Below are positions 1 to 55,297 of a DNA stretch of 64,000 bases, in pieces. The position numbers were made by a program, and so were the translations under genes. Where the stretch lies: assembly GCA_963716475.1 (NCBI GenBank), contig OY970314.1, forward strand, positions 854,508 to 918,507, read 5' to 3'. The notes beneath the pieces were generated by a model. It did not search any database. It was not told the DNA's origin and saw nothing but the letters and a program-made list of their open reading frames with translations. The stretch comes from Candidatus Woesebacteria bacterium. Lineage in GTDB: Bacteria; Patescibacteriota; Microgenomatia; UBA8517. Within the stretch, counting starts at the first letter, position 1. Each line of letters begins with the position of its first letter.

Positions 1-238
1 ATTCAAGAATGGGCAAGTGAGTGGGTGGCACCATGGATAAATGTAATGCTTGATATACCAAGTACGGTTCGTGATTGTACCAATTACGGTGGGACAGCGG
101 CGCAGACAGAGGTTGTTACCTACTTACAAATGGAGAGACTAATCCGTTCGATGATCACCACAAGTTATAAACAAAAGGAAGATGTCGGGAAAACAATCCT
201 AAGTACGGCGAAATCGCTTTATACTTAATATATCGTCA

Positions 239-1930
239 CTATTCGGCTTCGCCTGGTTTATTCACATGAGTTGTCTTCCTTTCGCTACCAGGCACGGCCC
301 CTTGCATCTTTTGTTCATAACCTCTCAATCCCTTATAAATAGCACCTCTTATTCTGCCGGTTTCCCAACCTGTTCCCCTCATTCTATTAGCAAGGTAGCC
401 TGCCCCTGCGCCTCCAGCGATACCCGAAGCTATACCAGTAGCCCCTCCGGCGATACCCTTAACCGGTCCATAGGCTTCGCCGATTGCAGTGCCAAATGAG
501 AATCTTTCACCCATAACAAGCCCTTTAAGCATATCCGGAACTTTCGGAATTAGGGCTATTATACCAAAACTTATGGCCAAAAAGATAAGGCCTGATATTC
601 CGGAACCTGCGCCAAGTCCACTGGAGCCTATGATGCCCGGCACCCACACGTTAGGAGTATTACCAAATACGCTTGTATAATAACTGCTAATGCTAACACC
701 GGCCTGGACATATGATTGAAAAAGAGTTGCCCAGGCAAACCAAAAAAGCAGGCCGGTTACCGGAAATACGAGGATGTCGGCCATAACTCTTTTAAACCAA
801 GAACCAAAACCCATAGAAGGAACAATCGCCCCTGCCAATATTTGAACAGGGGCTGTAATAATTGATATATAAAGACTAATCAATGTTTTAATTAAAACAT
901 AGGGGACTTTAAAGGTGTACCAGACTACAAGCACTAGAACCCAGACGGTCATGATTACGAAAACCAATGCTAAAACTGCCCCAAAAATGTTAAATCCTGA
1001 AAGTAAGATTGTGGCGAAATTCGAAACGGCAGCGAAAAAAAACAAAATTGCATACCCCAGCATTTCAAAAAATACCCAAAAACCTCCCATCCAAGCATAA
1101 CCCGGCCCCGTGCCGGAGATTGTTTGGTAAGCGGCACCAATGGAAGCCCATTTGGTGAGGTTTAGCAAAAGCGCAAAGAAACCCGATATAACATACATCA
1201 GGTCAACCGCAAAACCCGCAATGGCATAGGAGAAAGTAATAAGTATCATAGCCATGATCACTTTCGGGAGAGCGGACTGAACAGAAACTACTGTTTGTGG
1301 GGAAAGTTTAACCCTGAACATAATCATGAAAGCAAAAACGATTATCACCAAAACGAGAAGAACATAAGAAATATCCCTAAAGCCCTTCCAATATGTTTGT
1401 ACCCAACTAAGACCACCGTATCCAAAGCCCTGGGCCTTTACTGTAGAAACCAAAGAGAACTTATTTAGGAGATTCTTGGTATATCCCATTCCTGATAAAT
1501 CTCTGTTATCGGTGTTAAATATAGCAGCTACGACCGATTGGTTGTTATTGCCGGGGACCGAAACGAGTTTGGGAAGAACATCAACGGCCTTACCCATAAA
1601 GGTTGTAATTGCACCGGTACAACTAGTTATATCCGCCGTGCTCGTACCAAATAGTTTTATAAAACACGTGATGGAGTTCTCGCCAACAAGGCTCTCAACC
1701 GCCCTCACGGGCAAAAAGAGGAAACTGTAAACTACCCACTGGACCTGGGCGGCAGTGTAGCGTTCGCCGAAGATTTCATCCGCCGGGGAAGTGTTTTGAT
1801 CATAAACTTTTAAATACCATTCAAAAGGATCTTGACTGTACCAGGTCTGTGCCTTGACTGGGGTTAAATAGGGAGTAAAGGAAAAAAATACAGTTAATCC
1901 AAGTAAAAATGAAATGAGCAGTTTTTTCAT
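239..1930 (-). CDS. Polytopic membrane protein with signal peptide, possibly VirB6/TrbL-like
   Basis: 563 aa. N-terminal signal peptide (MKKLLISFLLGLTVFFSF...VKAQ), an extracytoplasmic segment, at least 8 predicted TM helices and a Gly-rich C-terminal tail (GIAGGATGIASGIAGGAGAGY). The architecture resembles the VirB6/TrbL family. It is the last gene of the minus-strand pilin-like operon. Confidence 0.35.
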   Translation of the reverse strand: MKKLLISFLLGLTVFFSFTPYLTPVKAQTWYSQDPFEWYLKVYDQNTSPADEIFGERYTAAQVQWVVYSFLFLPVRAVESLVGENSITCFIKLFGTSTADITSCTGAITTFMGKAVDVLPKLVSVPGNNNQSVVAAIFNTDNRDLSGMGYTKNLLNKFSLVSTVKAQGFGYGGLSWVQTYWKGFRDISYVLLVLVIIVFAFMIMFRVKLSPQTVVSVQSALPKVIMAMILITFSYAIAGFAVDLMYVISGFFALLLNLTKWASIGAAYQTISGTGPGYAWMGGFWVFFEMLGYAILFFFAAVSNFATILLSGFNIFGAVLALVFVIMTVWVLVLVVWYTFKVPYVLIKTLISLYISIITAPVQILAGAIVPSMGFGSWFKRVMADILVFPVTGLLFWFAWATLFQSYVQAGVSISSYYTSVFGNTPNVWVPGIIGSSGLGAGSGISGLIFLAISFGIIALIPKVPDMLKGLVMGERFSFGTAIGEAYGPVKGIAGGATGIASGIAGGAGAGYLANRMRGTGWETGRIRGAIYKGLRGYEQKMQGAVPGSERKTTHVNKPGEAE

Positions 1931-1965
1931 TACAAATCAGTTTAGCACAACAGAACAATTTTCTG

Positions 1966-4935
1966 CTAGTAACTATGAGCGACATTCCAAACACAAGCAT
2001 TATGACTTGTATTTCCGGAACCCCCAACCTTTTCGCAGAAATCTCCCCCGGGGCAACCGGAATATCCACCCGACGCACAACTTCCATGCGTGGTGTTGCA
2101 CGTCCAAGTGCTATTGTATGCGGTCCCATATTCCCAGACCCTGATTGCCGTCTCATAGTCGCTGCTGTCCCACGAGCAACTATTCGAGGCACCGGATGCA
2201 GCGTTTAGCGAAATTCCGTAACACGTCTTTCCGAGGAAATACGGTGAGCCGTTTTGATTTTGATTTAGAGTTTTAGCCAAAGCAAATATAGAATCCATTA
2301 AATTGCAGGGATCCGGTTGCCTGGTTGGATCCACCACCTTAACGGCATCCTTCACTGCATTCCAATAAACTTGAAAGTATGGAAGGACTCCTAAAATCGG
2401 ATCGGAATTCGGATCACAGTTTGGCATTGGAGAACAGCTCCAGGTTTGTACATTGGCCTCTGTCCAGTCGTACTTACCGGGGATATTAAATGCCCCTTCC
2501 CCAAACATTACTCCTAAAATTAGTCCCGGGGGAACGTTGTAACTTTGTGAAGCTGCCTCGACAATACTTACCAGAGTTGGTAGATTTGCTAGATTGGCAG
2601 AGCCTACTGTTCCGAGGTTGGATAATTTACAAGATCCGCTTGCTGCCGGGAGGGCGGGTAACTTACCTCCGATACAGGATATCGCCCCCGTGCTATTGGA
2701 TAGAGGGCCAAAAGAAATGGGGTCGCCATAACCCTTCGGTCTCAGAAGAGTCTGGATTCCTTTTAAGAAATATTCCGAAATTCCTCCTACGTGGGGGAGG
2801 TTTATATTGGGTGATGAGGACTGTGCGCCGGTAATGGTAACACTTGTTGAACCAGGCATGTCCTTAAGTGTTCCTATCTGGGTCCCGAGTTTTGGAAATA
2901 ATCGTTTGACAATTGCGGTAGGTCCCGCAACCAGCCTTGACCAGACATCTGTAAGTTTTGGACTGTTTGATGAGGTATAAAGATTAATATCGAAAGTACT
3001 GCTGCAGGTTTGTACAGGCGGAGGCGGTGGAATAGGGCTTGGTAGATTACAGCAGTACCAGGCTCCGGGACAGACCCCTGTACCCGTTGTTCCTCCATCA
3101 TTCCTGCATTCGACTTGATTTGGGACGCATGTTCCTGAACAGGAAACTGGTAAACCGGCGCAGCAGTAGCGAGTTCCGGGACATGTTCCCGTACCTCCTA
3201 TTCCTCCGTCACCCCTACATTCGACTAGATTGGGGACGCACGTTCCTGAACAAGTATACGTTGGAGGAGGCTCTGTACAATTAATACCGCATTGGTAACC
3301 GGTAGCACAACTCGTCTGACCGAATGATGTTGTACATACGTCTGAATTTGGATAACACGATCCGCCGAGACGTGAGCAGGGTGGATTGAACGTACAGGAA
3401 AAATTTGCCGTATATGAGAGGTTCCCCGAGAGTGGACTGGCAAAAAGATTATCTCCCCTGTTGGATCTTACCTCGAGAGTGTTGCAGGAAGAGGATGGTG
3501 CAACTGCAGTGTCCGGCCCGGTTTTTGGCTGACCTTTGCTTAAATAAGTGTCCTGGAGGGTTGATCCCAGTTCACTATTCTCCTGAGTGTGGGAGAAGAA
3601 TAGTGTGGACGGGGTTTGATTGGAAAACAGTACATTTGTGAGCGCGGCTCCGGAAACAGAATCGATCTTAATATTTCCCTGCAGGTCTTCCGTCGAAGAA
3701 AGGGGGATGTAGGGAAAAAGAGCCGAGTAAAAGTTTGGTTTTAGGGCATTATCTAGGCATAGAATTACCCCCTTGCCGCCAATGACAGGTATAAAATCAG
3801 GGGCTTTTACTTCGACACAACTATTGCCTCTCCAGTTCTGAAGGGCATGATAGTAGCTTACATAGTCCGGATAATCGGATCTTACCGGTGGCAGGTGGCC
3901 TGCCCACTGGTCTAAACGGATCTTCTGAATAAGGGGTGATAGTGAACCTTCGTAACAAGGTGCAGGAAATCCGCCTATTTCGATATTCCAAAACAAAACC
4001 GGAATGTTTATCCCATAAATGCAGGCTGCAATCTGGTTGTGGCGAATACCTGCCCCATTCAAAGAAGCAATAGCGTCCTTGACTGTTTGCGCCCTTTGTT
4101 GCTGCTGGACTTCCTGGGGAAGCAGTTTATTGATAGGCCCCGAATAGTTAATAAGTTTGTCCCGGTCAAGTACACTTACTTTTTCAGCAAGCGGGTTTAT
4201 GGTAACGCAGCAGACCTGTGCGCCAAGACATGAACTGGTTCCATCAGCCTTAACAAGAGGGTCGGGAACAGGTATTAGGGTATGGGAAAGACACATTCCT
4301 GGAACTATCTTTGATAAGTCTGAACACACCCCGGCCACACCACTATTCCCGATGCAATCGTCGCTTACAGTCAAAGGTGAATCCTCCGCTCGGTTGACAG
4401 TACCGTTAAGGTACCAGCTGACATACCCGTTAACCAAATCGGCATCGCTTAGTGGCGTGGTATAACCTGTCGGAGTTGTATAACCTGTCGGAGTTGTATA
4501 GCCCGTAGGGGTTACATTACACGACGGATCCGGAGGTTGAGAATTAGGGACACATTCCGTATTTCCCATAAAAGGAAGATTTGCGCCGTAAAGGTTTATG
4601 GTTATTAAATGTGGGGCTACATAGTCGGCATATGTACAGACATCTTTATTGCCGGTGATTACACATCTTGAGTCATTTGGATTATAAGTTTCGGAAACGG
4701 TTTCTTGTATGGTAAGGGTGTTTCCGCAAAACGTTGCGTATTCGTTCGTCGTAGCTTGACAGGTTGCGCTGGCCTGATAAGGTCTCAGAGAATGAAATTC
4801 CGGATTTCTGACTTGGTTACAGGGAACGGGCGGGTTGGGGACTTGGGCATTTACCGTGCTTATTTTCAATGAAATACAAATAAAAAAAAATCCAATTAAA
4901 AAAAACTTGAATTTCTTGAAAATTGGCAGTTTCAT
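1966..4935 (-). CDS. Large secreted Cys-rich repeat protein (989 aa), function unknown
   Basis: Signal peptide MKLPIFKKFKFFLIGFFFICISLKISTVNAQ. An in-frame 18-bp x3 tandem repeat encodes TPTGYTTPTGYTTPTGY (about 4449-4502). A ~105-bp tandem duplication gives two modules CSGTCVPNxVECRxDGGxxGTGxCPGxxYCC (about 3050-3290). There is also a poly-Pro stretch and a Cys-rich C-terminal domain. Confidence 0.6.
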   Translation of the reverse strand: MKLPIFKKFKFFLIGFFFICISLKISTVNAQVPNPPVPCNQVRNPEFHSLRPYQASATCQATTNEYATFCGNTLTIQETVSETYNPNDSRCVITGNKDVCTYADYVAPHLITINLYGANLPFMGNTECVPNSQPPDPSCNVTPTGYTTPTGYTTPTGYTTPLSDADLVNGYVSWYLNGTVNRAEDSPLTVSDDCIGNSGVAGVCSDLSKIVPGMCLSHTLIPVPDPLVKADGTSSCLGAQVCCVTINPLAEKVSVLDRDKLINYSGPINKLLPQEVQQQQRAQTVKDAIASLNGAGIRHNQIAACIYGINIPVLFWNIEIGGFPAPCYEGSLSPLIQKIRLDQWAGHLPPVRSDYPDYVSYYHALQNWRGNSCVEVKAPDFIPVIGGKGVILCLDNALKPNFYSALFPYIPLSSTEDLQGNIKIDSVSGAALTNVLFSNQTPSTLFFSHTQENSELGSTLQDTYLSKGQPKTGPDTAVAPSSSCNTLEVRSNRGDNLFASPLSGNLSYTANFSCTFNPPCSRLGGSCYPNSDVCTTSFGQTSCATGYQCGINCTEPPPTYTCSGTCVPNLVECRGDGGIGGTGTCPGTRYCCAGLPVSCSGTCVPNQVECRNDGGTTGTGVCPGAWYCCNLPSPIPPPPPVQTCSSTFDINLYTSSNSPKLTDVWSRLVAGPTAIVKRLFPKLGTQIGTLKDMPGSTSVTITGAQSSSPNINLPHVGGISEYFLKGIQTLLRPKGYGDPISFGPLSNSTGAISCIGGKLPALPAASGSCKLSNLGTVGSANLANLPTLVSIVEAASQSYNVPPGLILGVMFGEGAFNIPGKYDWTEANVQTWSCSPMPNCDPNSDPILGVLPYFQVYWNAVKDAVKVVDPTRQPDPCNLMDSIFALAKTLNQNQNGSPYFLGKTCYGISLNAASGASNSCSWDSSDYETAIRVWEYGTAYNSTWTCNTTHGSCASGGYSGCPGGDFCEKVGGSGNTSHNACVWNVAHSY

Positions 4936-4977
4936 ACGCTTTCATTATATCCCAATATTTTATGTCGTACGAAGGTC

Positions 4978-5328
4978 TCAGGGGAGCAAGATATTGAAAC
5001 CGGTTACGTCCACCCCGGTGATTTTGTAGATAAGGACTAAAACCAGATAGGAAATGAGTATTATTACCAAACCGGTGATTGCGGAGGTTAAGGTTCTTTT
5101 GGCCCCCTCAACAGCTTTAGGGTCACCCCCCGAGGTTATAAACTTAAACCCGCCGATAATTAGAAGGATAAAAAGTACAATTCCTGCAAACCCTAAAGCA
5201 TAACCTACAATTTTTTGAAAAAGACAACCGAAATTGGCAACGGTAGCAATTCCGCTTGGGTTAACATTACACATGTGTTTGAGACTCCACCATAAAGCAA
5301 TTCTAAACCACGCAAAAAAAATCAGCAA
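4978..5328 (-). CDS. Small two-TM-helix membrane protein, VirB2/TrbC pilin-like paralog 8
   Basis: Loop motif GFKFITSGGDPKAVEGAKRTLTSAITGLVIILISYLV between two hydrophobic helices. The true start may be an internal Met (MCNVNP...). Confidence 0.5.
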   Translation of the reverse strand: MLIFFAWFRIALWWSLKHMCNVNPSGIATVANFGCLFQKIVGYALGFAGIVLFILLIIGGFKFITSGGDPKAVEGAKRTLTSAITGLVIILISYLVLVLIYKITGVDVTGFNILLP

Positions 5329-5362
5329 GAAGAAGATTCAGGCGAATTCCAAGAAAGTGAAG

Positions 5363-5710
5363 TTATATTGCCAGATTGAGATGAAGTATGTCAACGTGGA
5401 AGAAGGCGTTAATAAGAGCAACAATGGCCCAAGCGGCAAAGACTATGACAAGCCCAACAAGAGCAGCCGTAATCTGGTTTCTTGCACCCTCCGTTTGTGC
5501 TTTATCTCCACCCGAGGCGATCCAGCGGATCCCGCCTACAACGAGCATAAAGAAGAAAATAATAGCGGCGATTATTACCAGAAACCTTACGATGATAGTA
5601 ATAATGCCAGGAAAATCAAGTGTGCCAAGATTAGCAAATTGACCAGTTGGCTGAAGATTGACCTGTGTATTGCCTATTTGTGCGATTAAGTTTTTCATCT
5701 GCATAGTCAT
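5363..5710 (-). CDS. Small two-TM-helix membrane protein, VirB2/TrbC pilin-like paralog 7
   Basis: Motif GIRWIASGGDKAQTEGARNQITAALVGLVIVFAAWAIVALI. Same family as its neighbours. Confidence 0.5.
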   Translation of the reverse strand: MTMQMKNLIAQIGNTQVNLQPTGQFANLGTLDFPGIITIIVRFLVIIAAIIFFFMLVVGGIRWIASGGDKAQTEGARNQITAALVGLVIVFAAWAIVALINAFFHVDILHLNLAI

Positions 5711-5832
5711 TATGGAATCACTAAACTCGTCTTGTCAAGGGCCAATTATGACTCGCAAATCCATATTATGGTTTAAACAGGGCGGTGAGTTGTGGCAGTT
5801 GGAATGCATGGAGTTGGGACAGGGCATACTGC

Positions 5833-6156
5833 TCAGCCAAGGGTGGGCAAGGTAAGTTTTAACAGATTTACATTAAAGAACACGCCGACCAACTGAATTA
5901 TTGCGAACACCGCCAAAAGAATTACAAGTCCTATCAAAGCGCTTGTAATGGTTCCTCTAGCATCTTCAAGCTTCTGTTTATCTCCGCTTGAGGCAATCCA
6001 TTTTATGGCGCCGATTAAAAGCATGAAGAAAAAGATAATCACACCGATTATAAAACCCCATTGGATAGCGTAGGGTATAAACTTTTGCACCAAAGCCAAC
6101 CCGGCACTGCCGGATGATCCGCCGGCGGGGGAAGGTAATATTGGATTTGTTATCAT
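5833..6156 (-). CDS. Small two-TM-helix membrane protein, VirB2/TrbC pilin-like paralog 6
   Basis: Motif AIKWIASSGDKQKLEDARGTITSALIGLVILLAVFAII. The N-terminus is Gly/Ser-rich. Confidence 0.5.
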   Translation of the reverse strand: MITNPILPSPAGGSSGSAGLALVQKFIPYAIQWGFIIGVIIFFFMLLIGAIKWIASSGDKQKLEDARGTITSALIGLVILLAVFAIIQLVGVFFNVNLLKLTLPTLG

Positions 6157-6167
6157 TATTGCTGTGC

Positions 6168-6548
6168 CTACAGGTTAGCTATTATATTGAAAAGGTTTTG
6201 AATATTCAAAATACCGGTTAGGCCCAGCAAGGAGCCGACAAACTCGATTATTACAAGGGCGACAAGAACCACGACCAAGCCTATTATCCCCATAGTGATT
6301 CTTCTCCTGGCGCTCTCCAGGGCTTGCTTATCGCCCCCGGAGCTTATGATACTTATGGCGCCCGTAATAATACTAAATATTGCCCAGATAATGGCGACAA
6401 TTGTCGTTACCCCAATTACTGCAGAAATGAACTTGGAAAAAACAGTGACAGCTCCCCCGGACCCGATAGGATTATCCAAGGGTCCGTTACCGGGGCCTTT
6501 AAGCCCACCACCCGGATATAGAGGGATGTCTGCCAATAGATTTGTCAT
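6168..6548 (-). CDS. Small two-TM-helix membrane protein, VirB2/TrbC pilin-like paralog 5
   Basis: Motif SIISSGGDKQALESARRRITMGIIGLVVVLVALVII with a Gly/Pro-rich N-terminal region. The start is trimmed to the internal Met (MTNLLADIPLYPGGG) so the overlap with the upstream gene becomes ATGA-type. The ORF track gives 6168..6680. Confidence 0.45.
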   Translation of the reverse strand: MTNLLADIPLYPGGGLKGPGNGPLDNPIGSGGAVTVFSKFISAVIGVTTIVAIIWAIFSIITGAISIISSGGDKQALESARRRITMGIIGLVVVLVALVIIEFVGSLLGLTGILNIQNLFNIIANL

Positions 6549-6898
6549 GGAAAGGTTGGAATTGTTGGTTTCAGGATAAATGTCGGATCTTTGAATATTA
6601 GCTCGCCGAATATTGCGGCTAAAACAAAGGCTCCGGCTGCAAATGCCAGTCCCAGGGCTGTTTGCCAAATTTTTGCCCAAGCCCCGGCGACCTTTTTGGG
6701 ATCGTCTCCGGCAGACATAAAAGCGTATCCGGCCAAAATAAAATTAAACAAGGCATAGACTCCGGCACCAACAATTAAAATCCAAATAACGGATTGTATC
6801 AATTTCCCTATTGCGGCACCCGGGGTTGGTGCATACGTTGCAAGCGAACCCGGCAAGGTTACATTGCCAAAGGGGTTTTGTGCTAAATAATGAATCAT
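6545..6898 (-). CDS. Small two-TM-helix membrane protein, VirB2/TrbC pilin-like paralog 4
   Basis: Motif FMSAGDDPKKVAGAWAKIWQTALGLAFAAGAFVLAAI. This is the most divergent copy. Confidence 0.45.
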   Translation of the reverse strand: MIHYLAQNPFGNVTLPGSLATYAPTPGAAIGKLIQSVIWILIVGAGVYALFNFILAGYAFMSAGDDPKKVAGAWAKIWQTALGLAFAAGAFVLAAIFGELIFKDPTFILKPTIPTFP

Positions 6899-6899
6899 T

Positions 6900-7199
6900 T
6901 TAAAAAATATTCGGTATTCCTAAAAGGGAACTTATTAATTTTACTATCCAATATGATGTGAATACAATAACAAAGCCGATTACGGCTGAAGTTATGGTTT
7001 TTTTTGCCTGTTCCGCTTTTTGGGGATCGTTTTGCCCGGCCGATCCTATCATTCCAATCCCTCCCATGATGAAAAAGAAAAGTAGAATCAATCCGGAAAG
7101 AATGAAGGCGACGTTTAGAAAAATGGTGACGAGCCTACTTACGCTATTAATACTTTGGAAACTTGATGTTCCGCCGAAAAGGGTATAACCGATATTCAC
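6900..7199 (-). CDS. Small two-TM-helix membrane protein, VirB2/TrbC pilin-like paralog 3
   Basis: Motif GMIGSAGQNDPQKAEQAKKTITSAVIGFVIVFTSYWIV. Confidence 0.5.
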   Translation of the reverse strand: MNIGYTLFGGTSSFQSINSVSRLVTIFLNVAFILSGLILLFFFIMGGIGMIGSAGQNDPQKAEQAKKTITSAVIGFVIVFTSYWIVKLISSLLGIPNIF

Positions 7200-7246
7200 A
7201 AGACTATTGTATTACGATGAACACATCTAGACAAGTCAAGTGTATG

Positions 7247-7603
7247 TTATGGAGGAGTCCCGAATACCTTTCCGAAAAGCGTATTCTGAAGGTTAAAGAG
7301 CTGACCGAATATCTGGACTATAAAAAAGGCAAAGATAATAATTACAAAACCAATCAGGGCATTGGTGATTTTGGCTTGTGCAGACTGCATAGCCTTGGGG
7401 TCACCCCTCGACAACATCATCTGCAACCCTCCTATCACCAAGTAAACTAAGAGAGCAATCCCAGCGGCACCAAAAATATAAGGAAGAAGAATTGATATTA
7501 ATTTTCCAATGTTTGGTATTGTAAATTGGAGAGGTATTCCGGCCAGGTTTTGGACCGCGTCAAAGTTTAGTGCTAATTGCATAGTATTATTAACCAAAGC
7601 CAA
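7247..7603 (-). CDS. Small two-TM-helix membrane protein, VirB2/TrbC pilin-like paralog 2
   Basis: Motif LQMMLSRGDPKAMQSAQAKITNALIGFVIIIFAFFIVQIF. Confidence 0.5.
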   Translation of the reverse strand: MALVNNTMQLALNFDAVQNLAGIPLQFTIPNIGKLISILLPYIFGAAGIALLVYLVIGGLQMMLSRGDPKAMQSAQAKITNALIGFVIIIFAFFIVQIFGQLFNLQNTLFGKVFGTPP

Positions 7604-8285
7604 ATACGTTTAATCCCAGTATATCAATTCCCAGAAATTTAAGTATAAAAACAGAGAAAATTAAAAGAATCAGGCCGGAAATTGCGGATGTTAAAAGTTC
7701 CTGACCGGCCTTGAGCCTCTCGGGATTCCCCGCAGCGGTCATAATCATGAATCCGGCGTATAGCATTAAGAGAAATGCAATACCTCCGCCTATGCCCACA
7801 GCCCATCGTAAAATATTTCCCAAAAAGACCTCAGGACTACTAAAGTCGATACAGCCGATGGCGGTATTAATACTATTTGCGCTACTGCAATTAAGGTTTG
7901 TTGTGTTGGGAGTTGGAGCTGGAGTTGTGTTGGGAGTTGGAGCTGGAGTTGTTTGCGGAACTGTATGACAGGTGATAGGAGGGCTGTCTCCAACGTGCCC
8001 CCAACAATATGGGGCACTAGAGCAGCATTGGATTGCTACGCATGACACACCATTTCCAGCACACGTGGCAGAGGGTTGTTGGCACTGGCACGTTGCCAGA
8101 CTGCCTGGCCCACCTACCGTTATTTGAACGACAACGCAGGGGAGGGTGCAGCCATAATTAGGATAACCAGTAAGTTCCATGCAACCCATCACGCTTGAAG
8201 GGCAGGCTGCTAGTGCAAAAACTTTCTGGGGTAATAAAAAAGAAATCAGTAGAAGTAATATGGAGAAAACAAATATTCTTTTCAT
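7590..8285 (-). CDS. Secreted Cys-rich domain + Pro/Thr linker fused to a VirB2/TrbC pilin-like C-terminal module (first gene of the operon)
   Basis: Signal peptide MKRIFVFSILLLLISFLLPQKVFALA. The ORF track starts 27 nt upstream at 8312. A Cys-rich ~100-aa domain is followed by TPAPTPNTTPAPTPNTT, encoded by a 24-bp tandem repeat at about 7900-7960. The C-terminus is AGFMIMTAAGNPERLKAGQELLTSAISGLILLIFSVFILKFL. Confidence 0.5.
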   Translation of the reverse strand: MKRIFVFSILLLLISFLLPQKVFALAACPSSVMGCMELTGYPNYGCTLPCVVVQITVGGPGSLATCQCQQPSATCAGNGVSCVAIQCCSSAPYCWGHVGDSPPITCHTVPQTTPAPTPNTTPAPTPNTTNLNCSSANSINTAIGCIDFSSPEVFLGNILRWAVGIGGGIAFLLMLYAGFMIMTAAGNPERLKAGQELLTSAISGLILLIFSVFILKFLGIDILGLNVFGFG

Positions 8286-8346
8286 TAAATATATTCTAGA
8301 GCAATTGGACAAAAACTAAAAGTATGGGCTGGTATATCGCACTCGT

Positions 8347-8366
8347 GCGATATTTCAACGTTCAAT
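8347..8366. promoter_or_regulatory. Palindromic operator-like site ATATCGCAC-TC-GTGCGATAT in a divergent promoter region
   Basis: Perfect 9-bp inverted repeat between the pilin-like operon (minus strand) and the SpoIID-like gene (plus strand). An extended -10 TGgTATAAT lies at about 8399-8409 on the plus strand. Near-identical half-sites recur at about 10230 and 10269. Confidence 0.45.
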
Positions 8367-8410
8367 TCAGGTCGGTCAAGCCCGTCATTTTTGAATGTTG
8401 GTATAATGGA

Positions 8411-10153
8411 ATGCCTATGCTATACAAATTTTCAATTTTCAGTTTTCAATTTTTCAATAAGTTTAAATTTTTATTGTTTGGAATTCTGATATTGTTTGGG
8501 ATTTGTTTTTTGAAGTATGGTTCCTTAACGAAAGCTCAGGAGTGCCCTGCAACCGATTATCAGTGCCAAATTGACGCTATTCAAAGAAGTATCGACGCCC
8601 TTTCCCCCGCCCAGCAAAAAAACAAGGAAGACCTGGCAGCTCTTAATAAGCAGCTTGCCGATTTAAATTCCAGAATTACAAAATTGACCTCGCAACTTAA
8701 AGTTCTTGAGAATCAAATAGTAGGAAGGGAAGAAGACTTGGCTTTTACAAAGGAAATTTTTGATGAGAAAGCTAAAGAACACTATACATTTTTGAGACTT
8801 TATGACCCGATTACCCCCTTTCTTTTTTCGGATACCGCGTCACAAGCCTTTCAGGAAATAACTCTCAGACAAAGAGCGGCTGATCAGGACAGAAAGACAA
8901 TGGAACAATACGCTGCCGATTTGTCAACGCTAAATTCTGACAAAGAAACCTTAACAAAAAATAAGACCAGTCTTTCCTCACTTCAGTCGCAGGTCGCCGA
9001 GAAGCAAAAGTTTTTGGCAGGTGAGGTTGCAAAAGTGGATACGTACCTCTCCAGTTTGTCATCTAAACAGCAGGAACTTCAGGCGTTGAAGGAGGGTGGT
9101 TTTTCGACGACCGTCGGAGACGTTCCGGCATCGGCTGAGCCTTGTTCCGGCAAACCCGGATCGTCAAATTTCTGTGATCCGGGATTTAGACCCGCATTTG
9201 CCGCTTTTTCCTACGGGGCGCCACATAGAAAAGGCATGAGTCAGTACGGTGCTTACGGGAGAGCCAAGTCGGGTCAGTCTGCTGAGGATATACTCCACGC
9301 CTACTATGGAGGGATAGAGATTAAGAAGGACTATGCGACCAATATAAATATCAAGGTCCAGGGTTATGGGACTGTTGATATCGAGACGTATGTAAAGCGT
9401 ATTTATGAGATGCCGGCAAGTTGGACTGACCACGATTCGGCTGCGCTTAAGGCTCAGGCGGTTGCCGCCAGAAGCTACGCCCTGGCCTACACGAATAATG
9501 GTGCGAATTCTATTTGTGCAACAGAAGCTTGTCAGGTATATAAACCGGTAAATAAAGGCGGTGCTTGGGATGCGGCGGTAGATGCCACGAAGGGATGGGT
9601 TTTGGTTTCGGGAGGAGCACCTTTTTCGGCATGGTATGCTTCCACAGCAGGGGGTTATACATTTAGCTATTCAGCTCAGGGCTACACTACTCCTAACTTT
9701 TGGGATACTCCGGGGGGACAGGGCGGTTGGCCCAATAGCGCCTACGAGATTGCCGGCGGTTCTCCGTGGTTTTATAAAGGCTGGTTTAAGAGTAGGTCCG
9801 GGGCTTCCTGTGGAAGATCAAACCCGTGGCTAACCTCAACCGAGATGGCGGACATTTTGAATGCCAGATATGTCCTTGATGGAAACGGAGACGTGAGTCG
9901 CATCTCGCCTGTGGGAGACTGCTGGGGGGGCAATCCCTATTCGGTATCTGATTTGCAGGGAATTGGCGGATATAGTTCGGTTTCGGGTGTATCTGTCGTA
10001 TATGGAAATGACGGGTCTACTTCAAGCGTTACTTTTTCGACAAATAAGGGTACTGTAAATCTTACCGGTTCTAAATTTAAGGAAGCCTTCAATCTTAGGG
10101 CTCCCGGATACATCGGACTGAAAAGTTCGTTATTCAATATAGAGAAGCTCTGA
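8411..10153 (+). CDS. SpoIID/LytB-domain protein (putative lytic transglycosylase) with N-terminal signal peptide and coiled-coil region
   Basis: C-terminal domain with FSYGAPHRKGMSQYGAYG and MPASWTDHDSAALKAQAVAARSYAL, matching SpoIID/LytB signature blocks. The N-terminal ~200 aa are heptad/coiled-coil-like (QLADLNSRITKLTSQLKVLENQ...). The start is trimmed to MPMLYKF after the promoter. The ORF track starts at 8324. Confidence 0.6.
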   Translation: MPMLYKFSIFSFQFFNKFKFLLFGILILFGICFLKYGSLTKAQECPATDYQCQIDAIQRSIDALSPAQQKNKEDLAALNKQLADLNSRITKLTSQLKVLENQIVGREEDLAFTKEIFDEKAKEHYTFLRLYDPITPFLFSDTASQAFQEITLRQRAADQDRKTMEQYAADLSTLNSDKETLTKNKTSLSSLQSQVAEKQKFLAGEVAKVDTYLSSLSSKQQELQALKEGGFSTTVGDVPASAEPCSGKPGSSNFCDPGFRPAFAAFSYGAPHRKGMSQYGAYGRAKSGQSAEDILHAYYGGIEIKKDYATNINIKVQGYGTVDIETYVKRIYEMPASWTDHDSAALKAQAVAARSYALAYTNNGANSICATEACQVYKPVNKGGAWDAAVDATKGWVLVSGGAPFSAWYASTAGGYTFSYSAQGYTTPNFWDTPGGQGGWPNSAYEIAGGSPWFYKGWFKSRSGASCGRSNPWLTSTEMADILNARYVLDGNGDVSRISPVGDCWGGNPYSVSDLQGIGGYSSVSGVSVVYGNDGSTSSVTFSTNKGTVNLTGSKFKEAFNLRAPGYIGLKSSLFNIEKL

Positions 10154-10202
10154 CACTCCGTGATTTCCACACTTCGTGACAGGTAAGCTCTAATAGGCAA
10201 AA

Positions 10203-10295
10203 TGTTATAACAAAAACAGGATTTTTGATATATCGCACGGGTGCGTTATAACAAAAAGGATTTTTGATATATCGCACGGGTGCGTTATAATCATC
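10203..10295 (+). repeat. Tandem ~40-bp direct repeat (2.3 copies), each carrying a -35/-10-like promoter and an operator half-palindrome
   Basis: The unit GTTATAACAAAAA(C)AGGATTTTTGATATATCGCACGGGTGC occurs twice, followed by GTTATAATCATCC. Each unit reads as TTGATA-N16-TATAAC, and the last copy reads TATAAT. Each unit embeds ATATCGCAC-GG-GTGCGTTAT. Confidence 0.6.
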
Positions 10296-10300
10296 CTAGA

Positions 10301-10876
10301 ATGCCTGACATATTTATTTCCCCTGATGAGTCGGGAAAAGGAGTCCTCGGTAAAAGTTTCTCCGCATTTTCCCTTTATCCGAGCGGTGTCGATTTTGAAA
10401 CCAGAGAAGACAAAGAAAAGATAATTCTTATGCTCCGGCAGCACCCGATTGTTAATGTTAGATGGATTTCTATGACAATCTTGCTTTTGACCGGTCCGTC
10501 GGTTCTGGGCCTTTTGGGAGTTTTTTCACTTCTTCCTGTGGGTTTTTCCCTTGTTATTACATTGGCATGGTATTTATTTACAAGCGCGTACGCAATCGAA
10601 AATTTCTTAAGTTGGTACTTCAATGTTTATTTCATAACGACAGAGGGGATAATCGATGTCGATTTTTTTAACTTGCTTGATAAAAGAGTGTCGGAAGCGG
10701 AGCTTGGCAGAATTCAGGATGTAAGTTATTCAACAAACGGAGCGTTGGGAACGACGCTGAATTTTGGTGATGTCCGGATCCAGACGGCAGCGGAAATACC
10801 GGAATTTAAGTTTGAGCTGGTACCAAATCCGGAAAAGGTGGCAAAAATTTTGGATGATTTGATAGACAAACATTAA
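10301..10876 (+). CDS. Membrane protein with bacterial PH (bPH_2/YdbT-like) domain
   Basis: Two TM helices, then IIDVDFFNLLDKRVSEAELGRIQDVSYSTNGALGTTLNFGDVRIQTA, typical of the membrane-flanked bPH_2 domain. The start is trimmed to MPDIFISP. The track ORF at 10280 would include the TATAAT box. Confidence 0.5.
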   Translation: MPDIFISPDESGKGVLGKSFSAFSLYPSGVDFETREDKEKIILMLRQHPIVNVRWISMTILLLTGPSVLGLLGVFSLLPVGFSLVITLAWYLFTSAYAIENFLSWYFNVYFITTEGIIDVDFFNLLDKRVSEAELGRIQDVSYSTNGALGTTLNFGDVRIQTAAEIPEFKFELVPNPEKVAKILDDLIDKH

Positions 10877-10877
10877 G

Positions 10878-11102
10878 GTGGAAAACATACTAACAAGTGG
10901 TTTTAATACTTGGATTTTGATAAAAGCACTTGCATTGGTGATTCTGGGGATGTATCTTATCTTTGCCTTTTTGATTACGCGGCAGGTAAAGCTTATGACG
11001 AGTACTTTGCGTTTGGGTTTTGATGCGCTTGCCAAGATTTTATCTTATCTCCATTTAGCTTTCGCAGTTTTAGTTTTTTTGGCTGCCTTGATAATTCTTT
11101 AG
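10878..11102 (+). CDS. Small membrane protein (2 TM), hypothetical
   Basis: 74-aa hydrophobic protein immediately after the bPH gene. Confidence 0.4.
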   Translation: MENILTSGFNTWILIKALALVILGMYLIFAFLITRQVKLMTSTLRLGFDALAKILSYLHLAFAVLVFLAALIIL

Positions 11103-11105
11103 ATA

Positions 11106-13001
11106 ATGTTAGAAATAATTAGTGCAAAAGTGACGGCCGCTCCGGGAGCCTCTGGGTGGGCACAGGTCCATGAGTTTACTTCGGATGACCCCGAACGTAG
11201 GCGCGTAAGAGGAAAACTTATCGCCGTTATTGCTACCAATAAAGCGGAAGAAGGGATTGATACAATCACATCCGGCAGGGAGATAATTAGCCGACTTCAC
11301 GAGGAGTACTTCGGCCCAAATGAGGGGAATCCTTTTGATTTATTGAGAGATGCTACCCAAAAAGTGGCGGATGAATTTGGAGAAGGCAAGGGAGAAGTAG
11401 AAATTGCGGCCTGCGCATTTGTTGAGGGAGTAATCTATTCGACAGCTTCGGGCGGAGCTCGGGTAATGATCTCCCGTGATAGCGCACTCGCTACCATCTT
11501 GGTAAGTGAAGATCGCGTTATTACAGCCTCGGGTTATCCAAAAGAAGGAGATCTTATGCTTCTTGCAACCAAAGCTTTTTTCCAAATGGTTTCCGCCGGT
11601 GTAGTAAAAACTGCTCTTGCAACGGGAAGTCCGGAGGCAGCAGCGGAAACATTTAATCCAATAATTCACGGAGCGGCAGGAAGCGGAAATGTCGGCGCGG
11701 TGGTTATGAAATTTAATAAAGAAAATGAAGCATTCAATTCTCGGGAAGCTGTTCAGTCCGAAGATCAAAAAGAAAAATTACCGGCTTCTCCCAAAGACAA
11801 GCCGGTAAATATTATCAGGCAAAGAGCAAGGGCCTTGTTTAGTAAATTTAGAAGTAAAATCCCGGAAAGAAGCATATATATAAAGTCCGGTATGGGAGAT
11901 GAGGTTACATCGCAGAGCAAAAAAATGACTTTTTCCGCCGGGGTGATCCTCCTTGTGATTCTTGTTATAAGTATTGGATTTGGCATAAGGCAGAAAAGCA
12001 TTAATGATTTAAAGAAGAAATATCAGGGAATTCTTCAAATTGCCCAAAGTGATGTCGATCAGGCAATCGCACTTGCCAGTGTAAGTCCGGACAAGTCCAG
12101 AGAACTGTTTATTGACAGCGAACAAAAGTTGAAACAGATTCAGGATCTTAAGGTTACGGACACTAAAGTTAATGATTTGCAAAAAAAGATTGAAGAGAGC
12201 AAAGGGGCAATACTCGGGGAGTACGACGGCACACCAACCCTCTTTCTTGATTTAAGTCTGCTTTCATCCGGATTTACGGGGGATGCTATTTCGGCTTCCG
12301 GAGGGAATATCTACATTCTTGATAAATCGGGGAAAAGAGTTGTAAGTGTTGGGGTAGATACCAAAAAAAGTAAGGTTGTAGCGGGACCTTCTGTAATTGA
12401 CAATGCGGCAGACCTTGCTGCCTATCAGGATACGGCTTATATTCTGGCTACAGACGGAATTTACCAAGTGGGTTTAGCTAAAACCAAGGTGATAGATAAA
12501 ACTTGGGCCGGGGACGCCCTGATTTCCGCTTTTGCCGGGAATATGTATGTTCTTGATAAAACTGGGAACCAGGTTTACAGATATTCGGGCCAAACCGGGG
12601 GTACATTTGGCCCGCAACAAAAATGGCTTTCGGCGTCAACTACGGCGAATTTCTCCGGTGCGGTCGCCTGGGGATTGGATGGAGCAGTTTATGTTTTATA
12701 CCCAAATTCCAGAGTACTTAAATATAGCCTTGGCTCCCCCCAGAACTTTTCAATTTCCGGGGTGCTACCCGAAATCGGCAATATTGATGCAATTTACGCC
12801 GATCCGGATAATCAAGACATTTATCTTTTGGACAAAGCCGGGAAACGCGTTGTCGCCATAGATAAAAAAGGGAATTACAAAGCCCAATATACAGACGATC
12901 AAATAGCCGCTGCTAAAAGTCTGGTGGTTTCAGAAGCACAAAAAGAAATAATACTTCTTACCGGAGACAAACTCCTCTCGATCGAGATCCGACACCTTTG
13001 A
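11106..13001 (+). CDS. Single-pass membrane protein with a cytoplasmic N-domain (possibly degenerate PP2C-like) and C-terminal beta-propeller-like repeats
   Basis: 631 aa with a TM at about residues 265-290 (FSAGVILLVILVISIGFGI). The C-terminus repeats GNIYILDKSGKRVVSV / NMYVLDKTGNQVYRY / DIYLLDKAGKRVVAID. The N-domain assignment is weak. Confidence 0.3.
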   Translation: MLEIISAKVTAAPGASGWAQVHEFTSDDPERRRVRGKLIAVIATNKAEEGIDTITSGREIISRLHEEYFGPNEGNPFDLLRDATQKVADEFGEGKGEVEIAACAFVEGVIYSTASGGARVMISRDSALATILVSEDRVITASGYPKEGDLMLLATKAFFQMVSAGVVKTALATGSPEAAAETFNPIIHGAAGSGNVGAVVMKFNKENEAFNSREAVQSEDQKEKLPASPKDKPVNIIRQRARALFSKFRSKIPERSIYIKSGMGDEVTSQSKKMTFSAGVILLVILVISIGFGIRQKSINDLKKKYQGILQIAQSDVDQAIALASVSPDKSRELFIDSEQKLKQIQDLKVTDTKVNDLQKKIEESKGAILGEYDGTPTLFLDLSLLSSGFTGDAISASGGNIYILDKSGKRVVSVGVDTKKSKVVAGPSVIDNAADLAAYQDTAYILATDGIYQVGLAKTKVIDKTWAGDALISAFAGNMYVLDKTGNQVYRYSGQTGGTFGPQQKWLSASTTANFSGAVAWGLDGAVYVLYPNSRVLKYSLGSPQNFSISGVLPEIGNIDAIYADPDNQDIYLLDKAGKRVVAIDKKGNYKAQYTDDQIAAAKSLVVSEAQKEIILLTGDKLLSIEIRHL

Positions 13002-13018
13002 TGTTAGAATAGGGTAAG

Positions 13019-13453
13019 ATGAAAATCTTTAACAAGAAAGCCAGATTTGAATACGAGCTATCGGGGGAAGGAGTTGAGGCCGGTGTCTCCCTTTTGGGAG
13101 CTGAGGCTAAGTCCGTACGTGAGGGAAGAGCAGACATTTCCCAGGCTGCAGTCAGAGTATTAGGTAATGAGGCTTATTTAATCAATGCCAATATCCCCGC
13201 CTTAGGTATCCAAAAATACAATTCGACTAGGATGAGAAAGCTCCTAATGCATAGGGGGGAAATTCTTTCACTGGTAACAAAAATGAAGCAAAAAAAGTTG
13301 CAAATCGTGCCTGTTCGGGTGTACAATAAGGGTCGCTTAATTAAACTCTATCTTGAGCTTGGAAAGGCCAAGCGTAAGTTTGAAAAGAAAGAGGCTCTTA
13401 AGCGCCACGACATAAACCGAGACATAGAAAAGGCAATGAAAGGTTCGATTTAA
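13019..13453 (+). CDS. smpB: SsrA-binding protein SmpB
   Basis: 144 aa with ARFEYELSGEGVEAGVSLLGAEAKSVREGRADISQAAV...RMRKLLMHRGEI...KGRLIKLYLELGKAKRKFEKKE, the canonical SmpB signature. tmRNA lies immediately downstream. Confidence 0.9.
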   Translation: MKIFNKKARFEYELSGEGVEAGVSLLGAEAKSVREGRADISQAAVRVLGNEAYLINANIPALGIQKYNSTRMRKLLMHRGEILSLVTKMKQKKLQIVPVRVYNKGRLIKLYLELGKAKRKFEKKEALKRHDINRDIEKAMKGSI

Positions 13454-13456
13454 GTC

Positions 13457-13822
13457 GGGGACGATCGGTTTCGACGGAAAGCTCTTTACAATACTGCAGG
13501 CAGACTTTGATCCTACGTCTTAATATTAGGGTTAAAAAATAAAAGCTAGGAATTTATTCCAAGCTCAACCTAGGTACGCGCAAGCGTTTGCCTAAGTTGC
13601 ATCCTGAGACCTGATTCTCGATCGGATCAACTGGGTGTAAACCATTCGAGATGCTACCTAGACTTTAATGATTTAAAGGTTTAGGTAAAAGACAAATAAA
13701 TCTTACCTTGAAATTTCTTGTTGGCTAGATAAGTTCAGGGAAAATTCAAAAACCAAATAAGCTTGTAGAAGTGTTGTTTGAAGTATTTTCGGACGCGGGT
13801 TCGATTCCCGCCGTCTCCACCA
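13457..13822 (+). ncRNA. ssrA: tmRNA (ssrA)
   Basis: The 5' end is GGGGACGATCGGTTTCGACGG. The 3' tRNA-like end is GGACGCGGGTTCGATTCCCGCCGTCTCCACCA. The candidate tag frame GCT...GCC TAA at about 13545-13595 would encode ARNLFQAQPRYAQAFA*, or AQPRYAQAFA* from a later resume codon. Confidence 0.85.
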
Positions 13823-14979: not shown

Positions 14980-15067
14980 CGGTGAGGGTGGGATTCGAAC
15001 CCACGGTAAGGAAGATCCCTACATTAGTTTTCAAGACTAACGCCATCGTCCACTCGGCCACCTCACC
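14980..15067 (-). tRNA. tRNA-Ser (anticodon TGA)
   Basis: Reverse complement GGTGAGGTGGCCGAGTGGACGATGGCGTTAGTCTTGAAAACTAATGTAGGGATCTTCCTTACCGTGGGTTCGAATCCCACCCTCACCG. Long variable arm. Anticodon loop CTTGAAA. Confidence 0.8.
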
Positions 15068-15156
15068 TGGGCGGAGGATGAGGGAGTCGAACCCACCGGC
15101 CACTTACGTGACCAAGGTTTAGCAAACCTTCGCCTTAGCCGCTCGGCATATCCTCC
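15068..15156 (-). tRNA. tRNA-Ser (anticodon GCT), CCA encoded
   Basis: Reverse complement GGAGGATATGCCGAGCGGCTAAGGCGAAGGTTTGCTAAACCTT...GGTGGGTTCGACTCCCTCATCCTCCGCCA. Anticodon loop TTGCTAA. Confidence 0.8.
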
Positions 15157-15182
15157 AAAAGGCAGTGCAATTATAACAGATT

Positions 15183-15761
15183 TTGAGGTATACTATGCGT
15201 GTCATGGATACTGCCAAAGGTCAAAAAACAGAGACAGAAAGCACTTTAAATGATGAACCGCAAGCCGTCGTTGTCAGGCGTGAGCCGGAACGGGATTTAG
15301 TTACCTGGATTGCTCCCGGAAGGCCTTTTAGAAGACGCGACAGGCAGTTTTATGTTACGACCTTTGCCATAGCCGGAATTGTCAGTCTGATTCTTTTTCT
15401 GGCCGAGGGGATAATGCCCGTTATTTTGATTATTTCTCTGGTATTTTTATACTACGTTCTTTCGACCGTTCAGCCGGATAATGTTGAATACAAAATAACC
15501 ACGAAAGGGATTAAAATCGCAGGCAAACTTACGGAGTGGCAATATCTGAACCGCTACTGGTTTTCGAAAAGGTTTGAGAGTGAGCTTATGATCGTTGATA
15601 CGGTTTTGCTTCCCGGCAGGATTGAATTTGTAATAAACCCGGAAGTTAAAGTGGAACTTAAAAAAGAGGTTTCTGCCTACATTCCGTATGAGGAGGTTCC
15701 TCCAGCCGCCCTGGATAAAATTACGAACTGGTTTGCAGCCAAGTTGCCGGGGAATAAATAA
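15183..15761 (+). CDS. Hypothetical membrane protein (2 TM)
   Basis: 192 aa with a central hydrophobic pair (FAIAGIVSLILFLAEGIMPVILIISLVFLYYVL). No recognisable motif. Confidence 0.4.
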   Translation: MRYTMRVMDTAKGQKTETESTLNDEPQAVVVRREPERDLVTWIAPGRPFRRRDRQFYVTTFAIAGIVSLILFLAEGIMPVILIISLVFLYYVLSTVQPDNVEYKITTKGIKIAGKLTEWQYLNRYWFSKRFESELMIVDTVLLPGRIEFVINPEVKVELKKEVSAYIPYEEVPPAALDKITNWFAAKLPGNK

Positions 15762-15833
15762 GCCCTCGTAGCTCAACGGATCGAGCACTGGTTTGCGGAA
15801 CCAATGATATCAGTTCAATTCTGATCGAGGGCA
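15762..15833 (+). tRNA. tRNA-Arg (anticodon read as GCG)
   Basis: GCCCTCGTAGCTCAACGGATCGAGCACTGGTTTGCGGAACCAATGATATCAGTTCAATTCTGATCGAGGGCA. Cloverleaf with loop TTGCGGA. Confidence 0.7.
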
Positions 15834-15863
15834 CTTGCGTAATATCTGGAGGTCTCGCAATTT

Positions 15864-55250: not shown

Positions 55251-55297
55251 TTAGCTGCGAATTGTAGCAGTAAACCAGGGGGAAAGACAGCCTAAAG

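Follow-up and report, generated by a model that had tools for sequence, protein, structure and literature searches.

Does a row of eight related membrane-protein genes represent a store of interchangeable variants, or a set of different parts that are kept together because each of them is used? The question is raised by a 64-kb stretch of a Candidatus Woesebacteria genome (contig OY970314.1; the whole stretch analysed is referred to below as the window), where positions 4978-8312 of the minus strand hold eight open reading frames (ORFs) in a row, each encoding a predicted two-helix membrane hairpin. An earlier note on this DNA had taken them for pilins of a type IV secretion system (T4SS), similar to VirB2 and TrbC, and had named both antigenic diversification and functional specialisation as possible reasons for their divergence. 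The explanation favoured here, with a probability of roughly 70%, is that the eight genes encode VirB2-like subunits of the PF18895 (T4SS_pilin) family, that these belong to a chromosomal monoderm-type T4SS, and that they are non-redundant parts of one hetero-oligomeric structure. The kind of array has already been published; what is added here is evidence for a fixed eight-subunit kit, together with candidate VirB6 and hydrolase partners in Microgenomatia. Array positions are numbered 1 to 8 along transcription, from position 1 (7590-8285) to position 8 (4978-5274).

Eight Hairpins and Their Family

The ORF check, the alignment, the transmembrane scan and the matches to PF18895 agree in showing that the eight consecutive minus-strand hairpin genes are real. 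A core of hydrophobic helix 1, polar loop and hydrophobic helix 2 is common to all the copies (consensus ...AGII.FF.LI.GGI..I.SGGDP...E.A...ITSA.IGLVI....), and the Kyte-Doolittle scan finds two transmembrane segments in each of them, to which position 1 adds a third, N-terminal and signal-like. The polar-loop consensus reads SGGDPxxxExAxxxITSAxIGLVI, and the glycine of I-G-[LF] is the sole residue invariant across the eight copies; the loop motif proposed earlier is a fair approximation and is not conserved in the form in which it was written. Identity among the copies is low, about 20-33% to a reference copy in the alignment and 19-45% in pairwise comparison over 74 core columns. The genes lie close together: one start/stop pair overlaps as ATGA, and two of the gaps measure 1 nt and 11 nt.

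All eight proteins match PF18895 (E 1.5e-11 to 0.058), and six of them score 30-45 bits, above the Pfam gathering cut-off of 26.6 bits. Positions 4 and 5, both under this cut-off, align with the other copies and form conserved orthogroups, and the two-helix hairpin with a short polar loop that PF18895 requires is seen by the transmembrane scan in every copy. On sequence grounds, membership of the T4SS_pilin family can be regarded as established. Because all eight match PF18895 and each has positional orthologs in more than 40 other genomes (see below), the genes are not chance ORFs. Matches to NF045849, a Mycoplasma “pilin-like conjugal transfer protein” of integrative and conjugative elements (ICEs), are also found for all eight copies (E 3e-9 to 5e-3), with scores that all fall under the family cut-off of 40 bits.

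The relation to the classical TrbC/VirB2 family is more distant. The best score against PF04956, obtained by position 7, is 13.5 bits (E=0.086) as compared to a gathering cut-off of 27.9 bits, and the NCBIfam TrbC model PRK13871 gives 17.1 bits (E=0.0046) against a cut-off of 211. A family profile of 70 sequences, compared by hhalign with Agrobacterium tumefaciens VirB2, whose sequence had been checked against 8cue, found no match (probability 0.4%), and a profile of the eight copies found no useful match among the sequences of solved structures, VirB2 and TraA included. A Foldseek search of the PDB with the AlphaFold2 model of position 3 returned generic hairpins only. The long N-terminal leader of TrbC/VirB2-type proteins is missing from seven of the eight copies, which begin with a hydrophilic tail of 20-40 aa and have no N-terminal hydrophobic segment. 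A more diverse TrbC/VirB2 profile built from plasmids was dropped, as tblastn gave close Rhizobiales relatives only. The earlier assignment to VirB2/TrbC-like T4SS pilins is therefore upheld with respect to the PF18895 family and not with respect to direct membership of PF04956 (13.5 versus 27.9 bits). The label “VirB2-like” is used because of topology, faint cross-matches and genomic context, and the hairpin family is regarded as VirB2-like in the literature as well (PMC12102498, PMC12857230).

The membrane topology can be predicted from two features. Lysine and arginine residues are concentrated in the loop between the helices (2-4 per about 22 residues, versus 0.4-1.4 in each tail), and a signal peptide occurs only in position 1, whose N-terminal domain is large, and is present there in 41 of 41 genomes. 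Because of this basic loop, and because the signal peptide occurs on that copy alone, we infer that the N- and C-termini of each hairpin lie outside and the loop in the cytoplasm. VirB2 and TraA, before pilus assembly, are likewise inserted in the membrane with the termini outside and the loop inside.

Conservation of Each Position across Relatives

Whether the copies are interchangeable can be judged from the relatives of the source genome. Eighty related loci from GTDB species representatives were fetched by alignment of the 563-aa protein encoded at the end of the same operon, and not by the pilins themselves. The source genome is absent from this set, its best match being 64% identical in the 563-aa protein, which is 30-64% identical across the related loci. 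All 80 loci are of the Woesebacteria type, and many carry titles such as Woesebacteria, Microgenomates or “Patescibacteria group”. Several metagenome-assembled genomes (L003, L006, L008, L012, L015 and others) have been deposited as “uncultured Gammaproteobacteria bacterium” and one as “Alphaproteobacteria”; given their Woesebacteria-type locus, these titles look like taxonomic mislabels.

The full interval from the SpoIID gene to the gene for the 989-aa protein is available in 45 loci, of which 41 have exactly eight pilin genes and 4 have nine. The order from 1 to 8 is colinear in 68 of 68 loci that contain pilins, and where arrays have nine or ten genes, only position 1 or position 7 has been duplicated. 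Whichever position is used as query, BLASTP finds its best match in another genome at the same position in 98-100% of cases. The window's own copies find their counterpart in 40 of 40 genomes, save position 6 (36 of 40, the remaining 4 best matches falling on position 7). Core identity over the 74 columns is 52-75% (mean 61%) for orthologs taken from different genomes and 19-45% (mean 28%) for paralogs of one genome. Helices and tails are conserved inside each orthogroup and differ between paralogs, as is evident from the position-specific consensus sequences, and position-specific hidden Markov models (HMMs) split the database homologs with a median margin of 67 bits.

Judged from these comparisons, each array position is a separate orthogroup under purifying selection, and the data support a view of the eight copies as ancient, individually conserved and non-redundant paralogs. 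Positional orthology, combined with fixed number and order, argues against antigenic variation and for functional specialisation. The earlier suggestion of specialised subunits fits this strict positional orthology, while that of antigenically diversifying ones does not agree with copies that are each conserved across species, helices included, in an array of fixed order and number. The published accounts of such arrays consulted here draw an analogy with antigenic variation and make no mention of positional orthology, which could nevertheless be noted elsewhere.

The same order reappears in another form in some database relatives. In an exhaustive HMM search the hairpin domain was found in 88,351 representative proteins (E<=1e-3), and each of the best 150 of these is a single polypeptide with 2-17 hairpins in series, for example P0362, with 1,775 aa and 17 matched stretches. 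Some of the chains follow the array order, with positions 6-7 joined in 10 clusters, and 4-5, 5-6, 1-2 and 2-3 also found. Some of the linkers contain AxA-like motifs (VYAQ) after the second helix, which suggests, on the sequence pattern, that signal peptidase may process the chains.

Position 1 (7590-8285, minus strand) is the most elaborate member. It is a protein of 231 aa in which a signal peptide (MKRIFVFSILLLLISFLLPQKVFA) is followed by a Cys-rich extracytoplasmic domain, a Pro/Thr linker with TPAPTPNT in two copies and one PF18895 hairpin (35.4 bits, residues 160-227). The ORF stays open to TTG 8312, with ATG 8285 as the probable start. The “240-aa fusion” reported for this gene is accordingly not a pair of fused pilins, since it holds a single hairpin. 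An early hydrophobic segment and a Cys-rich N-terminal domain (median 8 Cys) are present in 41 of 41 genomes, and the orthologs are 71% identical in the core. The linker contains a perfect tandem repeat of 24 nt x 2.2 at 7900-7952.

The next three copies are simple hairpins. Position 2 (7247-7603, minus strand) has two transmembrane segments and 118 aa when counted from a TTG start, with an ATG about 7 codons downstream; it scores 35.8 bits against PF18895 and 36.3 bits against NF045849, and has positional orthologs in 40 of 40 genomes. Position 3 (6900-7199, minus strand), a 99-aa hairpin with a GTG start, obtains the top PF18895 score of the eight (44.7 bits), and its AlphaFold2 model (mean predicted local distance difference test, pLDDT, 80) consists of two long helices at 15-53 and 59-93. 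Position 4 (6545-6898, minus strand; 117 aa) is the most divergent copy, with 13.9 bits for PF18895, under the cut-off, and E=0.0026 for NF045849; its orthogroup is well kept: core identity between genomes is 67%, and the best match is always at the same position (100%).

Position 5 (6168-6548, minus strand) reaches 24.5 bits for PF18895 and shows the weak match to TrbC PRK13871 (E=0.0046). Its true start is most likely ATG 6548, giving 126 aa, because this codon forms the ATGA overlap with the stop of position 4 and because the gene is also called with 126 aa on an identical Logan contig; the 170-aa ORF described before, which extends to 6680, is over-extended. Position 6 (5833-6156, minus strand) is a 107-aa hairpin with 30.4 bits. 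Position 8 (4978-5274, minus strand) scores 33.3 bits for PF18895 and 31.2 bits for NF045849. Here the ORF is open to TTG 5328, and the gene call on the Logan contig has 98 aa; the hairpin, earlier given 116 aa, probably starts at ATG 5274 and has 98.

Position 7 (5363-5710, minus strand; PF18895 35.1 bits) is the candidate for the major subunit, because it is the most conserved, the commonest among the best homologs, duplicated in relatives and preceded by the best promoter-like site. Its orthologs are 75% identical in the core, the highest value of the eight, and this type accounts for 78 of the 120 best homologs in the database. The likely start is ATG 5698 (MKNLIAQ...), in agreement with the ortholog consensus. 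The promoter-like site TTGACA-18-CATAAT (5709-5738, minus strand; 11/12 match, best in window positions 1-8600) sits in the largest intergenic gap of the array (122 nt), immediately before position 7. As evidence for a promoter this is weak, because the number of such sites does not exceed that in shuffled sequence (15 found, 16.3 expected) and the gap is not conserved in relatives. The site ends on the first ATG of position 7, and an mRNA started from it would be nearly leaderless and would retain, of the ATG codons, only the third (5698, MKNLIAQ). No Rfam family was matched in the 122-nt gap, which folds no more stably than shuffled sequence (z = -0.04). Terminator-like sites in the array region lie mostly within genes.

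Operon Partners and Neighbouring Genes

The eight hairpins belong to a ten-gene minus-strand operon that also encodes a 989-aa secreted protein and a 563-aa polytopic protein. The gene for the former (1966-4935, minus strand) begins 42 nt after position 8 and is next after the array in nearly all related loci. The Cys-rich window protein has no Pfam or NCBIfam match, and a search against solved structures also gave nothing useful. Members of its family have a conserved N-terminal part, about 740 aa long, that could be assigned to no known family, and a lysozyme-like C-terminal region (GH23/SLT_3-type). A family profile of 25 homologs matched goose-type lysozyme 3gxk with E=0.006 in the C-terminal region, aligned through the “hES” motif, and PF18896 SLT_3 was matched by one of the 25 homologs (1.4e-7). 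At the lysozyme E-S site the window protein reads ...GVMFGEGAF.... On these similarities it may be an analogue of the VirB1/PrgK-type cell-wall hydrolases, an assignment held with moderate confidence at best. A Cys-rich module shared between this protein and position 1 was considered and dropped, as BLASTP found no significant similarity between it and the N-terminal domain of position 1. The linker of the 989-aa protein contains a perfect tandem repeat of 18 nt x 2.3 at 4460-4500 (TPTGYT); this repeat and that of position 1 might allow length variation by slippage.

The 563-aa protein (239-1930, minus strand), whose gene closes the operon, is made up of a signal peptide, a domain on the periplasm side, about 7 long transmembrane helices (residues 172-473) and a Gly-rich tail. 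It shares with VirB6/TrbL proteins the possession of at least five transmembrane helices and a location in a T4SS cluster, PrgI and VirB4 lying past it in relatives. No Pfam or NCBIfam match was found even at E<=10, and the search against solved structures gave nothing useful. The AlphaFold2 model has a pLDDT of 68 overall and of 80-94 in the transmembrane core, and its top three Foldseek matches in the PDB are TrwI/VirB6 of R388 (7o3v_F/J/G; probability 0.95-0.99, E about 0.1, TM score 0.40-0.43). The model thus suggests that the protein is a probable VirB6 analogue, with a confidence that is moderate at best. More than 1,100 homologs belong to this family, and the named ones are all from Woesebacteria or Patescibacteria. 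VirB6 homologues have been described as “scarce” in Microgenomatia, and extreme divergence has been suggested (PMC12102498); the 563-aa family may be the missing VirB6 of this group.

The layout of the related loci was scanned with the pilin HMM and with the proteins that flank the array in the window. When read along the pilin strand, the conserved arrangement is a 631-aa protein gene, a bPH gene and a SpoIID gene (all minus), then the pilins and the genes for the 989-aa and 563-aa proteins (plus), then a gene for a protein of about 1,050 aa (minus). Beyond this large gene, on the pilin strand again, relatives encode PrgI (PF12666, VirB3-like), a protein of about 230-270 aa with no family, and VirB4 of about 600 aa, which matches PF19044, AAA_10 and DUF87. 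In every one of the 63 related loci that continue for 6 kb or more beyond the 563-aa gene, VirB4 is found together with PrgI, at a distance of 3.6-7.8 kb (median 4.9 kb for VirB4).

In the window itself, the C-terminal end of the large gene, which encodes about 1,040-1,080 aa, is seen at 1-228 (plus strand), in opposite orientation and next to the 563-aa gene. On the identical Logan contig, L001, which runs 2,970 nt past the window start, the gene lies at 10020-13142 (minus strand), and the start of PrgI is not reached in these 2,970 nt to the left of the window. Homologs of the large gene (in L002, L007, L018, L020 and others) are placed in opposite orientation between the 563-aa gene and the PrgI/VirB4 module; the protein has no match in any family library and no evident transmembrane segment. 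With the VirB4 of the closest relative as query, the 120 best homologs (86-98% identity) include none from the source contig. Because only 238 nt separate the end of the 563-aa gene from the left edge of the window, the VirB4 module is expected just outside it. VirB4 is 86-98% identical across the 120 best clusters (the L002 copy is at 7687-9468), and in genomes where it reaches these values the pilins are about 50-65% and the 563-aa protein 30-64% identical. By this comparison of sequences, constraint on the ATPase is much stronger than on the components of the envelope.

On the other side of the array, a divergent gene (8324-10153, plus strand) encodes a coiled-coil protein with a SpoIID/LytB domain (PF08486 3.5e-15; TIGR02669 106 bits), which is found upstream of the array in most related loci long enough on that side. 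Together with a bPH_2-domain membrane protein and the 631-aa protein, which has a transmembrane segment, a repeat-rich C-terminus and no family match, it forms a trio at 8324-13001 (plus strand) whose order is kept in most related loci. This could be due to general genome colinearity or to a functional link, for example in cell-wall remodelling.

The rest of the window is housekeeping, including SmpB, tmRNA, DnaG, sigma-70, two class-A penicillin-binding proteins, ribonucleotide reductase and glycolytic enzymes, and no phage or bacteriocin genes were seen in it. SmpB is followed directly by the tmRNA (13457-13822, 141.5 bits) within the stretch 13019-13822, and four tRNA genes, ordinary housekeeping, lie near them (13019-13822 and 14980-15948). 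The two penicillin-binding proteins, of 769 and 740 aa with transglycosylase plus transpeptidase, are encoded in tandem at 52941-57520 (minus strand).

A Proposed Fixed Set of Subunits and Its Alternatives

In the mechanism proposed here, the hairpins would insert in the membrane with the loop in the cytoplasm, and a VirB4/VirB3/VirB6 machine would assemble the eight of them into one hetero-oligomeric structure. This could be a pilus-like filament with major and minor subunits or a fixed envelope-spanning conduit. One subunit, for which position 7 is the best candidate, would probably be abundant and the minor ones specialised; position 1 would show its disulfide-rich domain on the cell surface, and the 989-aa protein would open or span the cell wall. 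Assembly, stoichiometry, extracellular location and a role in host interaction are thus predicted features of the hairpins. A bolder proposal, offered tentatively and thought to be possible rather than likely, is that a single heteromeric VirB2-type pilus or conduit requires all eight hairpins as subunits that cannot replace one another, with a major subunit (position 7) and dedicated base and tip subunits, including a host-facing position 1, and that this serves uptake or exchange with a bacterial host rather than conjugation. If true, no earlier conjugative-type pilus or conduit would be known to consist of a fixed set of different pilins.

Several points weigh against the reading of the array as parts of one T4SS structure. 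To our knowledge, a T4SS pilus has never been seen in any Patescibacterium, and VirB2-type pili are known as homopolymers, so far as we are aware with no precedent for a heteromeric filament. The earlier note had called for a search for T4SS ATPases, and VirB4, VirD4 and VirB11 are absent from the 64-kb window, VirB4 being present in all the sufficiently long related loci; because no ATPase is in the window, the T4SS link of the source genome rests on the synteny of relatives. In addition, the support for VirB6 (Foldseek E about 0.1) and for lysozyme (profile E=0.006) is weak. In the literature, a T4SS pilus in Patescibacteria is treated as a possibility (PMC12857230).

The comparison with VirB2, TrbC and TraA (PF04956; the T-pilus 8cue/8exh and the F-pilus) shows both the basis and the limits of the proposal. 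The hairpins share with them a size of about 70-120 aa, two hydrophobic helices with a short basic loop, the predicted orientation and the company of VirB4/VirB6-type genes. They differ in a PF04956 score far under the cut-off, in the negative hhalign result and in the lack of a long cleaved leader in seven of the eight. The canonical systems have one pilin gene whose product forms a homopolymer with phospholipid, whereas the array holds eight conserved paralogs in a monoderm host. Fixed sets of paralogous subunits in conserved order, with one abundant and others acting at the tip or in initiation, are known from type IV pili and type II pseudopili. This is an analogy only, as the type IV pilin fold, a single N-terminal helix with a globular head, and the assembly ATPase are unrelated and no homology is implied.

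The alternative that survives best holds that the hairpins are channel or assembly subunits that stay in the cytoplasmic membrane, arranged as a hetero-oligomeric ring or bundle around VirB6, VirB3 and VirB4, and never form a pilus, which we consider rather unlikely. It draws on the closest named non-Pfam relatives of all eight copies, the NF045849 family (“Mbov_0395 family pilin-like conjugal transfer protein”) from ICEs of the wall-less Mycoplasma. These are small proteins with two transmembrane segments from an MPF-FATA-type conjugation system, also of a monoderm; they are encoded by a mobile-element gene rather than a chromosomal array, and the eight copies are relatives and not members of their family. 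The small ICE proteins CDS13/CDS15, which may or may not be those of NF045849, are called VirB3-like membrane proteins in reviews (PMC12857230). The strong conservation of the transmembrane helices in each orthogroup fits a specific intramembrane packing, covalent chains of 2-17 hairpins are easier to square with a membrane bundle than with a polymerising pilin, and pili are generally absent from Gram-positive T4SSs (PMC10633639). However, the topology, size and charged loop are those of VirB2 and TraA, the secreted disulfide-rich display domain of position 1 suits a surface structure, and signal peptidase could cut the chains into monomers at the AxA-like linker motifs. A pilus-like structure is also favoured by specialists (PMC12857230).

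A second alternative, in which the array is an antigenic or host-range repertoire of interchangeable major pilins, is very improbable on the evidence of the relatives. It has been proposed for Bartonella and Anaplasma phagocytophilum, which have several tandem VirB2-type genes in a T4SS locus; variation among these copies is seen as a means of immune evasion or of changing host-cell range, as relayed by the survey of Patescibacteria (PMC12102498). The same survey draws the analogy for Patescibacteria, where versatility may aid adaptation to different host strains (PMC12102498). The low identity between copies (19-45%) would fit such a repertoire, as would the short perfect tandem repeats in the linkers of position 1 and of the 989-aa protein. 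By contrast with the Bartonella and Anaplasma genes, the copies studied here keep their number and order, and every one of them is conserved between species: 41 of 45 loci have eight in unchanged order although the 563-aa marker is only 30-64% identical, orthologs are 52-75% identical with same-position best matches in 98-100% of cases, helices and tails are kept inside orthogroups and differ between paralogs, and the genes are packed down to an ATGA overlap and gaps of 1 and 11 nt. For the Woesebacteria lineage the repertoire is largely refuted.

The last alternative, that the hairpins are unrelated small membrane proteins (holins, bacteriocin-immunity proteins or others) with only the size and topology of pilins, has a negligible probability, for although the two-helix hairpin is a generic fold and solved VirB2 and TraA give no significant sequence match, no holin, phage or immunity family was matched in Pfam, PHROGs or NCBIfam (no copy matched PHROGs, and the best that NCBIfam gave was BlpZ with E=0.15), the PF18895 and NF045849 matches are consistent, the linkage to VirB4 and PrgI is invariant in relatives, and the window otherwise holds housekeeping genes and none of phage or bacteriocin.

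The favoured reading, that of non-redundant T4SS subunits, also places the locus among the known Patescibacteria arrays. A 2025 survey of 3,035 Patescibacteria genomes, with PF18895 among its profiles, counted 441 VirB2 arrays, each of 2-11 genes, across 383 assemblies and found them to be commonest in Microgenomatia (PMC12102498); an eight-copy set, which had been supposed to be unusual, is therefore not so in this phylum. A six-gene array in the T4SS cluster of Southlakia epibionticum ML1 is essential for epibiotic growth (PMC10633639, PMC12857230), and the “Sec secreted array” of TM7x is named among the Patescibacteria arrays as well (PMC12102498, PMC10633639, PMC12857230). The locus described here has what defines such arrays, that is, at least two tandem PF18895-type genes of low inter-copy identity (28% here, about 25% in the published arrays) with flank homologs from Woesebacteria, Microgenomates or the “Patescibacteria group”, and its chromosome is patescibacterial; in relatives, PrgI and VirB4 of a monoderm-type T4SS are encoded close by. 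It differs from the published arrays in being of the Woesebacteria and not the Saccharibacteria type, in its eight members with strict positional orthology and an N-terminally extended first member, and in being co-operonic with the lysozyme-like 989-aa and VirB6-like proteins. Where the survey reads the arrays by analogy with antigenic variation (PMC12102498), the conservation found here speaks for subunits that are fixed and non-redundant.

In the one species tested, epibiotic life cannot do without the patescibacterial T4SS (PMC10633639, PMC11665869). What distinguishes this system from other monoderm T4SSs is its pilin arrays. The Woesebacteria array appears as a fixed eight-part kit in which each part is conserved, a pattern that favours a hetero-oligomeric machine over a variable coat. 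Candidates can now be named for several of its tasks: position 7 for the major subunit, position 1 for surface display, the 563-aa protein for VirB6 and the 989-aa protein for a hydrolase or adaptor.

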